Source: Corynebacterium glutamicum ATCC 13032 (GTDB taxonomy: Bacteria > Actinomycetota > Actinomycetes > Mycobacteriales > Mycobacteriaceae). From it: a DNA stretch of 32,000 nucleotides. Shown here piece after piece: positions 23,152 through 31,852 of the stretch. The notes below the pieces were generated by a model, which ran no database searches, was not told the origin of the DNA, and was given only the letters and a program-made list of their open reading frames with translations. Positions within the stretch are counted from its first letter, which is position 1; each line of letters opens with the position of its first letter. A program made the position numbers and the translations under genes. The stretch spans positions 3,210,001 to 3,242,000 of the forward strand of contig NC_003450.3 of NCBI RefSeq assembly GCF_000011325.1, given 5' to 3'.

Positions 23152-23205
23152 GTGAATAACTCTTGTCTCAGTCAAAGCACCCAGTGGTGGTGGCGCGCTA
23201 ACTAA
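23152..23205 (+). CDS. trpL: trp operon leader peptide (3 tandem Trp codons)
   Basis: GTG AAT AAC TCT TGT CTC AGT CAA AGC ACC CAG TGG TGG TGG CGC GCT AAC TAA translates to [17 protein letters not shown]. It is too short for the ORF track and was found by eye. It sits directly upstream of the attenuator hairpins. Confidence 0.85.
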
Positions 23206-25602: not shown

Positions 25603-26649
25603 ATGACTTCTCCAGCAACACTGAAAGTTCTCAACGCCTACTTGGATAACCCCACTCCAACCCTGGAGGAGGCAATTGAGGTGTTCACCCCGCTGACCGT
25701 GGGTGAATACGATGACGTGCACATCGCAGCGCTGCTTGCCACCATCCGTACTCGCGGTGAGCAGTTCGCTGATATTGCCGGCGCTGCCAAGGCGTTCCTC
25801 GCGGCGGCTCGTCCGTTCCCGATTACTGGCGCAGGTTTGCTAGATTCCGCTGGTACTGGTGGCGACGGTGCCAACACCATCAACATCACCACCGGCGCAT
25901 CCCTGATCGCAGCATCCGGTGGAGTGAAGCTGGTTAAGCACGGCAACCGTTCGGTGAGCTCCAAGTCCGGCTCCGCCGATGTGCTGGAAGCGCTGAATAT
26001 TCCTTTGGGCCTTGATGTGGATCGTGCTGTGAAGTGGTTCGAAGCGTCCAACTTCACCTTCCTGTTCGCACCTGCGTACAACCCTGCGATTGCGCATGTG
26101 CAGCCGGTTCGCCAGGCGCTGAAATTCCCCACCATCTTCAACACGCTTGGACCATTGCTGTCCCCGGCGCGCCCGGAGCGTCAGATCATGGGCGTGGCCA
26201 ATGCCAATCATGGACAGCTCATCGCCGAGGTCTTCCGCGAGTTGGGCCGTACACGCGCGCTTGTTGTGCATGGCGCAGGCACCGATGAGATCGCAGTCCA
26301 CGGCACCACCTTGGTGTGGGAGCTTAAAGAAGACGGCACCATCGAGCATTACACCATCGAGCCTGAGGACCTTGGCCTTGGCCGCTACACCCTTGAGGAT
26401 CTCGTAGGTGGCCTCGGCACTGAGAACGCCGAAGCTATGCGCGCTACTTTCGCGGGCACCGGCCCTGATGCACACCGTGATGCGTTGGCTGCGTCCGCAG
26501 GTGCGATGTTCTACCTCAACGGCGATGTCGACTCCTTGAAAGATGGTGCACAAAAGGCGCTTTCCTTGCTTGCCGACGGCACCACCCAGGCATGGTTGGC
26601 CAAGCACGAAGAGATCGATTACTCAGAAAAGGAGTCTTCCAATGACTAG
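25603..26649 (+). CDS. trpD: Anthranilate phosphoribosyltransferase
   Basis: 348 aa. Motifs DSAGTGGDGANTINITT and KHGNRSVSSKSGSADVLEALN. Confidence 0.97.
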   Translation: MTSPATLKVLNAYLDNPTPTLEEAIEVFTPLTVGEYDDVHIAALLATIRTRGEQFADIAGAAKAFLAAARPFPITGAGLLDSAGTGGDGANTINITTGASLIAASGGVKLVKHGNRSVSSKSGSADVLEALNIPLGLDVDRAVKWFEASNFTFLFAPAYNPAIAHVQPVRQALKFPTIFNTLGPLLSPARPERQIMGVANANHGQLIAEVFRELGRTRALVVHGAGTDEIAVHGTTLVWELKEDGTIEHYTIEPEDLGLGRYTLEDLVGGLGTENAEAMRATFAGTGPDAHRDALAASAGAMFYLNGDVDSLKDGAQKALSLLADGTTQAWLAKHEEIDYSEKESSND

Positions 26650-28066
26650 TAATAATCTGCCCACAGTGTTGGAAAGCATCGTCGAGGGTCGTCGCGGACA
26701 CCTGGAGGAAATTCGCGCTCGCATCGCTCACGTGGATGTGGATGCGCTTCCAAAATCCACCCGTTCTCTGTTTGATTCCCTCAACCAGGGTAGGGGAGGG
26801 GCGCGTTTCATCATGGAGTGCAAGTCCGCATCGCCTTCTTTGGGAATGATTCGTGAGCACTACCAGCCGGGTGAAATCGCTCGCGTGTACTCTCGCTACG
26901 CCAGCGGCATTTCCGTGCTGTGCGAGCCGGATCGTTTTGGTGGCGATTACGATCACCTCGCTACCGTTGCCGCTACCTCTCATCTTCCGGTGCTGTGCAA
27001 AGACTTCATCATTGATCCTGTCCAGGTACACGCGGCGCGTTACTTTGGTGCTGATGCCATCCTGCTCATGCTCTCTGTGCTTGATGATGAAGAGTACGCA
27101 GCACTCGCTGCCGAGGCTGCGCGTTTTGATCTGGATATCCTCACCGAGGTTATTGATGAGGAGGAAGTCGCCCGCGCCATCAAGCTGGGTGCGAAGATCT
27201 TTGGCGTCAACCACCGCAACCTGCATGATCTGTCCATTGATTTGGATCGTTCACGTCGCCTGTCCAAGCTCATTCCAGCAGATGCCGTGCTCGTGTCTGA
27301 GTCTGGCGTGCGCGATACCGAAACCGTCCGCCAGCTAGGTGGGCACTCCAATGCATTCCTCGTTGGCTCCCAGCTGACCAGCCAGGAAAACGTCGATCTG
27401 GCAGCCCGCGAATTAGTCTACGGCCCCAACAAAGTCTGCGGACTCACCTCACCAAGTGCAGCACAAACCGCTCGCGCAGCGGGTGCGGTCTACGGCGGGC
27501 TCATCTTCGAAGAGGCATCGCCACGCAATGTTTCACGTGAAACATTGCAAAAAATCATCGCCGCAGAGCCCAACCTGCGCTACGTCGCGGTCAGCCGTCG
27601 CACCTCCGGGTACAAGGATTTGCTTGTCGACGGCATCTTCGCCGTACAAATCCACGCCCCACTGCAGGACAGCGTCGAAGCAGAAAAGGCATTGATCGCC
27701 GCCGTTCGTGAAGAGGTTGGACCGCAGGTCCAGGTCTGGCGCGCGATCTCGATGTCCAGCCCCTTGGGGGCTGAAGTGGCAGCTGCGGTGGAGGGTGACG
27801 TCGATAAGCTAATTCTTGATGCCCATGAAGGTGGCAGCGGGGAAGTATTCGACTGGGCTACGGTGCCGGCCGCTGTGAAGGCAAAGTCTTTGCTCGCGGG
27901 AGGCATCTCTCCGGACAACGCTGCGCAGGCACTCGCTGTGGGCTGCGCAGGTTTGGACATCAACTCTGGCGTGGAATACCCCGCCGGTGCAGGCACGTGG
28001 GCTGGGGCGAAAGACGCCGGCGCGCTGCTGAAAATTTTCGCGACCATCTCCACATTCCATTACTAA
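26642..28066 (+). CDS. trpC: Bifunctional indole-3-glycerol-phosphate synthase / phosphoribosylanthranilate isomerase
   Basis: The track ORF starts at 26543, but the true start is ATG 26642 (AAGGAG SD; [14 protein letters not shown]...), overlapping the trpD stop by 8 nt. IGPS half ([16 protein letters not shown]) followed by PRAI half (KVCGLTSP...). 474 aa. Confidence 0.95.
27529..27544. other. parS: parS (ParB-binding centromere-like site), perfect palindromic consensus, inside trpC(F)
   Basis: TGTTTCACGTGAAACA is embedded in the 24-bp perfect palindrome GCAATGTTTCACGTGAAACATTGC (27525-27548). An identical 24-mer recurs at 30189-30212. Confidence 0.8.
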
Positions 28067-28082
28067 AGGTTTAAATAGGATC

Positions 28083-29336
28083 ATGACTGAAAAAGAAAAC
28101 TTGGGCGGCTCCACGCTGCTGCCTGCATACTTCGGTGAATTCGGCGGCCAGTTCGTCGCGGAATCCCTCCTGCCTGCTCTCGACCAGCTGGAGAAGGCCT
28201 TCGTTGACGCGACCAACAGCCCAGAGTTCCGCGAAGAACTCGGCGGCTACCTCCGCGATTACCTCGGCCGCCCAACCCCGCTGACCGAATGCTCCAACCT
28301 GCCACTCGCAGGCGAAGGCAAAGGCTTTGCGCGGATCTTCCTCAAGCGCGAAGACCTCGTCCACGGCGGTGCACACAAAACTAACCAGGTGATCGGCCAG
28401 GTGCTGCTTGCCAAGCGCATGGGCAAAACCCGCATCATCGCAGAGACCGGCGCAGGCCAGCACGGCACCGCCACCGCTCTCGCATGTGCGCTCATGGGCC
28501 TCGAGTGCGTTGTCTACATGGGCGCCAAGGACGTTGCCCGCCAGCAGCCCAACGTCTACCGCATGCAGCTGCACGGCGCGAAGGTCATCCCCGTGGAATC
28601 TGGTTCCGGCACCCTGAAGGACGCCGTGAATGAAGCGCTGCGCGATTGGACCGCAACCTTCCACGAGTCCCACTACCTTCTCGGCACCGCCGCCGGCCCG
28701 CACCCATTCCCAACCATCGTGCGTGAATTCCACAAGGTGATCTCTGAGGAAGCCAAGGCACAGATGCTAGAGCGCACCGGCAAGCTTCCCGACGTTGTGG
28801 TCGCCTGTGTCGGTGGTGGCTCCAACGCCATCGGCATGTTCGCAGACTTCATTGACGATGAAGGTGTAGAGCTCGTCGGCGCTGAGCCAGCCGGTGAAGG
28901 CCTCGACTCCGGCAAGCACGGCGCAACCATCACCAACGGTCAGATCGGCATCCTGCACGGCACCCGTTCCTACCTGATGCGCAACTCCGACGGCCAAGTG
29001 GAAGAGTCCTACTCCATCTCCGCCGGACTTGATTACCCAGGCGTCGGCCCACAGCACGCACACCTGCACGCCACCGGCCGCGCCACCTACGTTGGTATCA
29101 CCGACGCCGAAGCCCTCCAAGCATTCCAGTACCTCGCCCGCTACGAAGGCATCATCCCCGCACTGGAATCCTCACACGCGTTCGCCTACGCACTCAAGCG
29201 CGCCAAGACCGCCGAAGAGGAAGGCCAGAACTTAACCATCCTCGTCTCCCTATCCGGCCGTGGCGACAAGGACGTTGACCACGTGCGCCGCACCCTCGAA
29301 GAAAATCCAGAACTGATCCTGAAGGACAACCGATGA
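28083..29336 (+). CDS. trpB: Tryptophan synthase beta chain
   Basis: 417 aa. PLP-lysine motif HGGAHKTN; GGGSNAIG. Confidence 0.97.
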
Positions 29337-30175
29337 GCCGTTACGACGATCTTTTTGCACGCCTCGACACGGCAGGGGAGGGCGCCTTTGTTCCCTTCAT
29401 CATGCTGAGCGACCCTTCACCAGAGGAGGCTTTCCAGATCATCTCCACAGCAATCGAAGCTGGCGCAGATGCACTGGAACTTGGCGTACCTTTCTCCGAC
29501 CCAGTTGCCGATGGCCCCACCGTCGCGGAATCCCACCTCCGCGCACTCGACGGCGGCGCCACCGTAGACAGCGCACTCGAGCAGATCAAGCGCGTGCGCG
29601 CAGCCTACCCAGAGGTTCCCATCGGAATGCTCATCTACGGCAACGTTCCTTTCACCCGTGGCTTGGATCGCTTCTACCAAGAGTTCGCTGAAGCTGGCGC
29701 AGACTCCATCCTCCTGCCAGACGTCCCAGTCCGCGAAGGCGCACCGTTTTCTGCAGCAGCTGCAGCAGCCGGAATTGATCCCATTTACATCGCTCCGGCC
29801 AACGCCAGCGAGAAAACCCTCGAGGGTGTCTCCGCCGCATCAAAGGGCTACATCTACGCCATCTCCCGCGACGGCGTCACCGGCACCGAACGTGAATCAT
29901 CCACCGACGGCCTGTCCGCAGTGGTGGACAACATCAAGAAATTTGATGGCGCACCCATCCTCTTGGGCTTCGGCATCTCATCCCCTCAGCACGTGGCAGA
30001 CGCGATTGCAGCGGGTGCTTCCGGTGCGATCACGGGTTCCGCGATCACCAAGATCATTGCTTCCCACTGCGAAGGTGAGCACCCGAACCCGTCCACCATT
30101 CGAGATATGGACGGTTTGAAGAAGGATCTCACTGAGTTCATCTCTGCGATGAAGGCAGCGACCAAGAAGGTTTAG
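29333..30175 (+). CDS. trpA: Tryptophan synthase alpha chain
   Basis: 280 aa. Its start overlaps the trpB stop (ATGA). Motifs [14 protein letters not shown] and GFGIS. Confidence 0.97.
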
Positions 30176-30192
30176 GCCTTTAAATGTGGCAA

Positions 30193-30208
30193 TGTTTCAC
30201 GTGAAACA
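30193..30208. other. parS: parS (ParB-binding site), perfect consensus, 13 nt downstream of trpA
   Basis: TGTTTCACGTGAAACA at the centre of the 26-bp perfect palindrome GGCAATGTTTCACGTGAAACATTGCC (30188-30213). Confidence 0.8.
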
Positions 30209-30230
30209 TTGCCCTAAAGTACAGATGTAC

Positions 30231-30279
30231 AAAGAAGCCGCCTCCTAGCTCTCGGGCTGGGAGGCGGCTTCTTTGTTTG
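30231..30279. terminator. Bidirectional terminator between trpA and the convergent PTS EIIC gene
   Basis: AAAGAAGCCGCCTCC (30231-30245) pairs with GGAGGCGGCTTCTTT (30260-30274), a 15-bp stem. TTTGTTTG follows on the plus strand; the tail on the minus strand is weaker (CTTTGT). Confidence 0.75.
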
Positions 30280-30310
30280 CGGTTTAGGAAATCTCAGGGT
30301 TTTGGAGATC

Positions 30311-31852
30311 TTAGCTTCGAGCCGGTGGGGTAGGAGCGCCCGCCGGAGGAGCAATCTTAGGGTAGGTCCGAGCCCCAGCCGTTGGAGTGGCATCAGCTTC
30401 CGCCTTCTCCACGCGCTCACGGTTGGGAGCTGGATCCCAGTGCCCATTCACGACGCGCTTCTGGAAGACCATCGCGCCACCCAGAAGAACCGCTGCGATG
30501 ATGAGCAACAAGATGAGCCCGCCAGCACCTTCCACCTTGGCTGCAGAACCAACAACGATTCCGAACCAACCAAAGTCCGCATCACCGAAAGTGGTGTTCT
30601 CTGACCCGAAGGAACCAAGCACACCAAGCAGGAAAGCAGGGAGGAAGGTAATCAGAAGACCGTTGGCAAAGGCGCCAAATACTGCTCCTCGACGACCACC
30701 CGTGGCATTACCGTAAACGCCCGCCGCGCCACCAGTGAAGAAGTGGGGGACCAAACCAGGCAGAATCAACGCGACACCAAAAGCTGGGTTCAGCCACGAT
30801 GCAAGAACAGTCAGGCCAACCAAGCCACCGACGAAGGAAGACAAGAAACCAATGAGAACGGCGTTCTGCGCGTAGGGGAACACGATCGGTGCATCCAATG
30901 CGGGGATAGCTCCGGGAACAACCTTCGCAGCAATACCTTGGAATGCGGGGACCAGTTCACCAAGAATGGTGCGGACACCAAAGAGAATCACGGCAACTGC
31001 AACGCCGAACTGCAGACCTTGAGTGAAGGACTGCATGATGTAGTTGCCTACGTTGGTGGCGCCATTGGGGAATGCAGTGAAGGCTTCTTCTTCTCCTGCG
31101 CGCACCAGGAACAAAATAGCCAAAATGATGTACATGATCGCCATGGACAGAGCTGTAGAAACCATGGAGTCGCGGAGGAAGCGCAAGCCTTCCGGAACCT
31201 TCATATCCTCAGTGGAAGGGCTGGCCTTCTTGCCCTTGCCACCGACCAGTCGGCCGACTGCACCGGCAGCTACATAACCTGCGGTGCCGAAGTGTCCAAT
31301 GGCAATGGAATCATCGCCAGTGATTCGGCGAGTCCACGGATGCGCGAACGCAGGCAACGACACCATGAGAATACCGAGCAAGAGAGCACCCACACCCACC
31401 ACAATCCACGCATCAAATCCGGCGGTGGCCAAGATGATGGTGAGCATGGTGGACATGAACAGCACGTGGTGTCCGGTGAGGAAGACATAACGCAGGTTGG
31501 TGAAACGAGCCAACACCAAAGAGATGGCGAAGCCCAGAATCATCAGCCACGCCACCTGCGCGCCGTATTCAGCCTGTGCGATTCCGGCGATGGCTTCATT
31601 CGTTGGGACAACACCACGCATGCCTGTGGCACCCATGATCATCGCACCCAGTGGCTCCAGGGAGGCAGTGACCAACGTGGCACCCGCACCAATGAGCAAA
31701 AAGCCCAACGTTGCTTTGATTGCTCCACCGATAACCTGACCGACGGAACGCCCCATGGCACCCAATCCCACGGCGGTGATGATACCGATGAGGAAAGCCG
31801 GAACCGCAAGGATTTCATTAACGAGGAAAAGAGGAATGGTTAACCAGTCCAT
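30311..31852 (-). CDS. PTS EIIC component, ascorbate (UlaA/SgaT) family
   Basis: 513 aa, polytopic. The N-terminus MDWLTIPLFLVNEILAVPAFLIGIITAVGL is typical of UlaA/SgaT. It has a roughly 45-aa Pro/Ala-rich cytoplasmic tail. I recall the C. glutamicum homologue being annotated as a ribitol-type PTS permease but cannot verify that. Confidence 0.88.
   Translation of the reverse strand: MDWLTIPLFLVNEILAVPAFLIGIITAVGLGAMGRSVGQVIGGAIKATLGFLLIGAGATLVTASLEPLGAMIMGATGMRGVVPTNEAIAGIAQAEYGAQVAWLMILGFAISLVLARFTNLRYVFLTGHHVLFMSTMLTIILATAGFDAWIVVGVGALLLGILMVSLPAFAHPWTRRITGDDSIAIGHFGTAGYVAAGAVGRLVGGKGKKASPSTEDMKVPEGLRFLRDSMVSTALSMAIMYIILAILFLVRAGEEEAFTAFPNGATNVGNYIMQSFTQGLQFGVAVAVILFGVRTILGELVPAFQGIAAKVVPGAIPALDAPIVFPYAQNAVLIGFLSSFVGGLVGLTVLASWLNPAFGVALILPGLVPHFFTGGAAGVYGNATGGRRGAVFGAFANGLLITFLPAFLLGVLGSFGSENTTFGDADFGWFGIVVGSAAKVEGAGGLILLLIIAAVLLGGAMVFQKRVVNGHWDPAPNRERVEKAEADATPTAGARTYPKIAPPAGAPTPPARS

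Follow-up and report, generated by a model that had tools for sequence, protein, structure and literature searches.

The perfect palindrome that follows trpA in the 32,000-nt stretch of Corynebacterium glutamicum ATCC 13032 DNA analyzed here (the window) is parS2, a chromosomal ParB site that has already been published and experimentally characterized. From the sequences compared here, its 5-bp arms are a short local version of a hairpin that occurs clade-wide with parS at its apex, and the 24 bp that parS2 shares with the intragenic site parS1 are a by-product of a CAA|core|TTG flank consensus, common to most of the C. glutamicum sites, and one lineage-specific substitution in parS1. Just downstream in C. 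glutamicum there is a separate, strong bidirectional terminator, and the arms are therefore probably redundant or vestigial. We assign this explanation as a whole a probability of roughly 0.9. The features of the window on which it is based are the following:

26642..28066, + strand: trpC(F), bifunctional IGPS/PRAI gene and host of parS1 (NF006945, 3e-171)
27529..27544: parS1 core within trpC(F), codons N-V-S-R-E-T (exact match; parS1 primers)
29333..30175, + strand: trpA, last gene of the trp operon (NCBIfam TIGR00262, 6e-79)
30188..30213, no strand assigned: 26-bp perfect palindrome GGCAATGTTTCACGTGAAACATTGCC, consisting of the parS2 core and the 5-bp arms GGCAA/TTGCC (sequence, fold)
30193..30208, no strand assigned: parS2 core, 16-bp consensus ParB nucleation site TGTTTCACGTGAAACA (exact match; primers of Böhm et al. 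2020)
30229..30283, no strand assigned: strong stem-loop with a 22-bp stem (30229-30276), preceded by an A-tract and followed by TTTGTTT (fold -42.9 kcal/mol)
30311..31852, - strand: convergent PTS ascorbate-type EIIC gene cg3365 (NF006919, 3e-159)

Within the 32-kb window, the 16-mer TGTTTCACGTGAAACA is present in exactly two copies (27529-27544 and 30193-30208), and both have no mismatch to the 16-bp palindromic consensus TGTTNCACGTGAAACA. A chance origin of the repeated motif was rejected, as shuffled sequences gave an expectation of 0.17 matches even when up to three mismatches were allowed. The stretch common to parS1 and parS2 is 24 bp long (GCAA-core-TTGC, positions 27525-27548 and 30189-30212), and the centers of the two sites are 2,664 bp apart. 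The palindrome begins 13 nt, and the 16-bp core 17 nt, after the trpA stop codon. Folded as RNA, the palindrome forms an 11-bp stem with an ACGU loop (-15.2 kcal/mol), so a stable GC-containing stem-loop is located directly 3′ of trpA. All of the coordinates and counts given in a preliminary description of this DNA (the second 16-bp copy, the 26-bp palindrome, the 24-bp identity, the spacing of the copies, and the 13-nt gap) were reproduced. The last 11,690 nt of the window are identical, with 0 mismatches, to BX927147.1 (locus L002), and the parS2 core maps to 3,213,500-3,213,515 of that 3,282,708-bp sequence. Six exact parS sites are found in the 21.5-kb locus L002, in line with origin-proximal clustering. 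An Rfam search of the whole window at the gathering threshold returned 0 matches.

The NCBIfam assignments give the order trpE, trpG, trpD, trpC(F), trpB, and trpA on the + strand, followed by the convergent EIIC gene, and the operon is listed as cg3357-cg3364 in Table S5 of PMC3890552. The start of trpC(F) used here is that of the called 474-aa gene (L002 13787-15211); the longest ORF begins at 26543. Because cg3365 is convergent to trpA, parS2 lies between convergent 3′ ends. Upstream of trpE, a trp leader peptide ORF is present at 23152-23205 (+), which ends with ...QWWWRAN and contains three consecutive Trp codons; it is the attenuation leader that is already known and that PMC3890552 lists among its operons as cg4012.

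The identity of the site was established from the published mutagenesis primers for parS2, which map exactly onto 30178-30227 and flank the 16-mer. Primers parS2mut-XmaI-up-R and parS2mut-XmaI-D-F carry CTTTAAATGTGGCAA and TTGCCCTAAAGTACA, the flanks at 30178-30192 and 30209-30223. Likewise, CATCGCCACGCAA and TTGCAAAAAATCATCGCC in the parS1 primers are the sequences that flank the intragenic copy. This match between the primer flanks and the window identifies the site as the already known parS2. Böhm et al. 2020 (Nat Commun 11:1485, PMC7083940) described ten parS sites of 16 bp each, which are clustered within 35 kb at a distance of 73 kb from oriC, with parS1 in trpCF and parS2-10 intergenic, and mutated all ten. 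The description of the palindrome as a second parS is thus borne out by both the primers and the ChIP-seq enrichment of ParB at 10 of 10 sites. The strongest enrichment was reported for the zone of parS1-4, and the occupancy of parS2 is known from this four-site zone (PMC7083940). ParB spreads from parS, maximally within 2 kb and reaching up to 16 kb, which agrees with the earlier suggestion that ParB could coat the distal part of the trp operon (PMC7083940). At parS, ParB promotes SMC loading; one parS is enough for normal growth and segregation, and the loss of all ten leads to a phenotype like that of a parB deletion (PMC7083940). The parAB genes of ATCC 13032 are known and are located outside the window (PMC7083940). 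Words that start with "palindrom" or "terminator" are absent from the main text of Böhm et al., and the extended arms are not discussed there (PMC7083940).

Extension of the palindrome past the core is a property of the whole set of parS sites. The flanks of the ten sites were rebuilt from genomic DNA for parS1-6 and from primer sequences only for parS7-10, and from parS1 to parS10 the perfect palindrome was found to extend on each side by 4, 5, 1, 11, 12, 6, 2, 10, 3, and 9 bp, respectively. The total of 63 bp compares with a chance expectation of 0.34 bp per site (negative-binomial tail ∼1e-28), and the tail is still ∼1e-15 when only positions past +3 are counted. Beyond +3, the arms differ from site to site (e.g. 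GGCAA, AAAAATGGCGA, AAAGAGGGAGAA, and AGAATGCCAA), so the ten parS are not copies of one repeat element. A dispersed palindromic repeat of the REP or MITE type was accordingly rejected, as the copies share no sequence outside the core and the near flank. Palindrome extension past the parS core seems to be unreported, and a literature search for links between parS and terminators, hairpins, or extended palindromes found nothing relevant.

The relatives were analyzed in 22 related loci, 14 of which were retrieved from reference genomes and 8 through TrpA homologues. Every related locus that extends to that part of trpC(F) has the intragenic parS in the same position, ∼1.8 kb before the trpA start and in codons for Arg-Asn-Val-Ser-Arg-Glu-Thr (L005-L024 and L026; L025 begins at trpA, which makes it unscorable in this respect). 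It is altered at most in the last base of the core, and it is kept down to 61% TrpA identity. The long-armed post-trpA parS is a feature of the clade around C. glutamicum, in which TrpA is at least 79% identical. The intragenic site in trpC(F) is much older than the post-trpA site. In L025 (TrpA 76% identical), the region between trpA and the gene that follows contains two unextended parS sites, at 1091-1106 and 1180-1195, which are 89 bp apart.

Between C. glutamicum, which has the shortest version of the hairpin, and six related species, the arms around the post-trpA core differ in sequence and keep their complementarity:

C. glutamicum: GGCAA / TTGCC
C. callunae: AAAAGGGCAA / TTGCCCTTTT
C. 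crudilactis: TAGGGGCAA / TTGCCCCTA
L020 and L023 (uncultured relatives): AACCGGCGA / TCGCCGGTT
L021: TAAACCGGGGA / TCCCCGGTTTA
C. pacaense: AACGACAG / CTGTCGTT

In an ungapped alignment of the seven post-trpA orthologs, 83.6% of the cells are paired (43-47% in slid controls), 11 pairs change on both sides, and the covariation score was reached by 0 of 500 shuffles. Six parS4 orthologs, located after the gene for a Rieske protein, behave in the same way, although both covariation sets are small (6-7 species) and phylogenetically non-independent. More distant Corynebacterium with the same core have mostly 0-1 bp of extension. Among the three explanations that had been proposed for the extra flanks, selection for a longer hairpin is the best supported, as the changes in the arms are compensatory; extended recognition by ParB is plausible only for positions +1 to +3, and gene conversion found no support.

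Within the clade, extended arms are found at sites that lie 11-47 nt past a stop codon. An extension of 0-1 bp is seen at sites in divergent-promoter regions and at those with a stop codon more than 100 nt away. There are two exceptions. One is the C. callunae ortholog of parS3 (L005 13475-13490), which lies between divergent genes and has the arms GAAGTCAa / cTGACTTC (7 bp after one mismatch); given this location, its arms are unexplained by a terminator reading. The other is L022:20420, 2 nt after a stop codon, with an extension of only 2 bp. At least five T within 7 nt are present on one or both sides of 12 of the 18 extended hairpins. The orientation of the T-tracts shows no clean agreement with gene direction, and the T-tract test is therefore not decisive for a function at the RNA level. 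At the parS site L020 14077-14092, after an ABC-permease gene, the stem is bulged and imperfect (CCCCG..tca / t..CGGGG) and T6 comes next; this is an RNA-type hairpin and not a perfect DNA palindrome.

Two sites of C. glutamicum itself coincide with listed terminators. Term-seq data for this species were not found in the literature search, and the usable resource was Table S9 of Pfeifer-Sancar et al. 2013 (PMC3890552), in which TransTermHP predictions and transcript ends from RNA-seq are given together, in the coordinates of BX927147. The parS4 core (3219100-3219115) lies within the terminator 3219094-3219121 (cg3369/cg3370; confidence 100), and the parS5 core (3224735-3224750) lies within the terminator 3224726-3224759 (cg3375/cg3376; confidence 100), at which cg3375 has a clear transcript end. 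Both are predicted bidirectional terminators, and the two cores (parS4, L002 6045-6060; parS5, L002 410-425) are located inside perfect palindromes of 38 and 40 bp, respectively, with A and T tracts.

Downstream of trpA, the folds fall into three arrangements. In C. callunae, L020, and L023, T5-T6 directly follows the parS hairpin, which is the sole terminator-like structure there. A simple terminator scan of C. callunae left this hairpin (L005:10881-10917) unflagged, and it is called terminator-like from its fold and T6 tail; we suspect that the stem and loop limits of the scan are ill-suited to a near-loopless palindrome. The parS hairpin of C. glutamicum and C. crudilactis lacks such a T tail and is followed by a separate strong hairpin. 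In L025 and L026 (75-76% TrpA identity), a separate GC-rich hairpin precedes an unextended parS. The strong hairpin of C. glutamicum lies about 16-18 nt downstream of the parS2 palindrome, and its stem in the window (30229-30276) is the TransTermHP terminator 3213541-3213578 of Table S9, which has a confidence of 100 and for which a transcript end in "stem 1" is given for cg3365 (PMC3890552). The stem-loop is likely a bidirectional intrinsic terminator that serves the trp operon on the + strand and cg3365 on the - strand.

The question of why parS1 and parS2 share as many as 24 bp can be approached from the flanks. When the 20 half-sites are read outward from the core, all 20 have T at +1, 17 have T at +2, and 15 have G at +3, with no consensus beyond. 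It could be proposed that the ParB of this lineage reads at least four extra bases per side, so that the 24-bp identity would reflect a longer true site. The information content of the flanks is compatible with this near the core, with 1.56 bits at +1 and ∼0.7 bits each for Y at +2 and G at +3 in the clade, and with 0.88 bits at +1 in more distant Corynebacterium, equal to the outermost core position there, all of these being counts that include orthologous, hence non-independent, sites. However, it drops to at most 0.25 bits from +4 outward, and +2 and +3 hold less than 0.3 bits in the outgroup. Moreover, the arms past +3 are wholly different between sites and species and yet complementary, which sequence-specific contacts do not predict. 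The sites parS4 (TCG) and parS5 (TTC) deviate from TTG and are nevertheless ChIP-positive, and the primers for the parS insertions that Böhm et al. placed elsewhere on the chromosome carry the bare 16-mer only (PMC7083940). Recognition over four or more extra bases is therefore unlikely in our estimation, and an extension of ParB recognition limited to +1 to +3 is plausible from the flank statistics. Gene conversion or duplication between two sites that are 2.7 kb apart and identical across 24 bp would be another source of the match, and it is highly improbable. The identity stops exactly at the ends of the palindrome, with no further similarity in the flanks, and TTGC is a common flank in any case (5 of 20 half-sites in C. 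glutamicum). The left flank of parS1 is formed by the codons CGC-AAT (Arg-Asn), which are kept across the genus. Its right flank is TCGC in C. callunae, C. crudilactis, and C. pacaense and TTGC only in C. glutamicum, in which the change of TCG to TTG replaced Ser by Leu and perfected the palindrome from 18 to 24 bp. In C. callunae and C. crudilactis, parS1 (TCGC) and parS2 (TTGC) are already alike at 23 of 24 positions, so one point substitution completes the match and gene conversion is unneeded.

Two further alternatives concern the arms of parS2. The 26-bp palindrome could itself be the working trp terminator of C. glutamicum, given that it folds stably 13 nt past the trpA stop, that the orthologous hairpins of C. 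callunae, L020, and L023 have T5-T6 tails and are the only terminator-like structures in those loci, and that Table S9 of PMC3890552 has no + strand row for cg3364. However, the tail of the palindrome (CTAAAGTACAG) has just 2-3 T, no U/T-tract directly follows the stem (at most three T per 7-nt window on either strand), the consensus terminator scan left the palindrome unflagged, and parS2 is absent from Table S9 of PMC3890552. The hairpin 16 nt later, with its TTTGTTT tail, is far more stable and coincides with the mapped transcript end of the convergent gene. We consider a terminator role of the palindrome itself very unlikely, and the earlier statement that it is not needed for termination fits these observations. 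A different origin of the arms would be as a functionless mutational by-product. The perfect 16-bp core would seed single-stranded DNA hairpins during replication, and quasi-palindrome template switching would then copy one arm onto the other and lengthen the palindrome. Template-switch mutations that perfect imperfect inverted repeats are documented (PMC7202029), and the Ser-to-Leu change in parS1 is exactly such a palindrome-perfecting change. The stem pairs are nearly all Watson-Crick with few G-U, as a DNA-level mechanism also predicts, and the palindromic arms of C. callunae parS3 lie in a divergent-promoter region, in which a terminator is unexpected. On the other hand, 16 loci from more distant Corynebacterium have the same perfect core and almost no extension, and within the clade the extension tracks the position just 3′ of genes. 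A/T tracts beside the hairpins are far commoner than chance would give (a few percent, roughly estimated), and bulged RNA-type hairpins with T6 tails, such as that at L020:14077, also exist. We regard a purely mutational origin as doubtful, and template switching may instead be the route by which selected stems arise.

The reading that we prefer is that the parS-centered hairpin would be an RNA-level structure of the terminator type. After trpA, the ancestor of the clade would have carried one hairpin that was both parS and terminator; a second, adjacent terminator would now do the job in C. glutamicum, and the arms of parS2 would probably be a redundant, vestigial, or decaying stem, not a working terminator. 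For the clade in general, we hold the chances to be evenly balanced that intergenic parS sites located just 3′ of genes form the apex of intrinsic-terminator hairpins, with one palindrome used for both ParB loading and an RNA stem. Such a dual use, if true, would couple transcription termination to the centromere, and it would suggest that terminator stems give rise to new parS sites or are recruited by them. On this view, parS2 of C. glutamicum would be a decayed case, its terminator role having passed to the adjacent hairpin.

An exact search with the parS10 arms (CCCTCAA-core-TTGAGGG) gave matches on unrelated JGI metagenome contigs (L027-L031, GC 0.54-0.68), four of which are high-GC, with L029 at 0.54; the L028 site is located between gidB and jag, in an origin region. 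CAA/TTG flanks are also present at other parS sites of these contigs, so the flank preference may reach past Corynebacterium. As a scan for the rest of the C. glutamicum parS cluster in metagenomes, this search instead returned unrelated origin regions (gidB-jag), mostly high-GC.

As a site, parS2 offers nothing new: it had already been identified, lies in a ParB-enriched zone, and had been mutated. The modest addition made here is the description of parS-centered hairpins with covarying stems, some of which are predicted terminators and one of which is at a mapped transcript end. If these hairpins terminate transcription, the genome would reuse a protein-binding palindrome as an RNA structure, and the question would arise of whether, at the centromere, termination of transcription and occupancy by ParB affect one another.

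Parallels can be drawn with three known systems. The parS of B. subtilis and the Actinobacteria type has the consensus tGTTNCACGTGAAACa and is bound by Spo0J/ParB. The C. glutamicum sites are similar in their perfect 16-bp match, their origin-proximal location, and their multiple redundant copies. They differ in that 9 of 10 are intergenic and many are located inside longer palindromes (up to 40 bp), the arms of which are specific to each site. For the parS consensus, Livny et al. 2007 is cited in PMC7083940. In comparison with bidirectional Rho-independent terminators (TransTermHP class; PMC3890552), the parS4 and parS5 palindromes are alike in that they are listed in this class with a confidence of 100. 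The parS2 orthologs also resemble these terminators, with GC-rich stem bases and T-tracts, whereas parS2 of C. glutamicum has no T-tract and is adjoined by a separate terminator. A protein-binding DNA site at the apex of the hairpin is, to our knowledge, not a known feature of Rho-independent terminators. Finally, with respect to parS1-10 of C. glutamicum (PMC7083940), the palindrome after trpA is the same object, and the site itself does not differ from its published form in any way.
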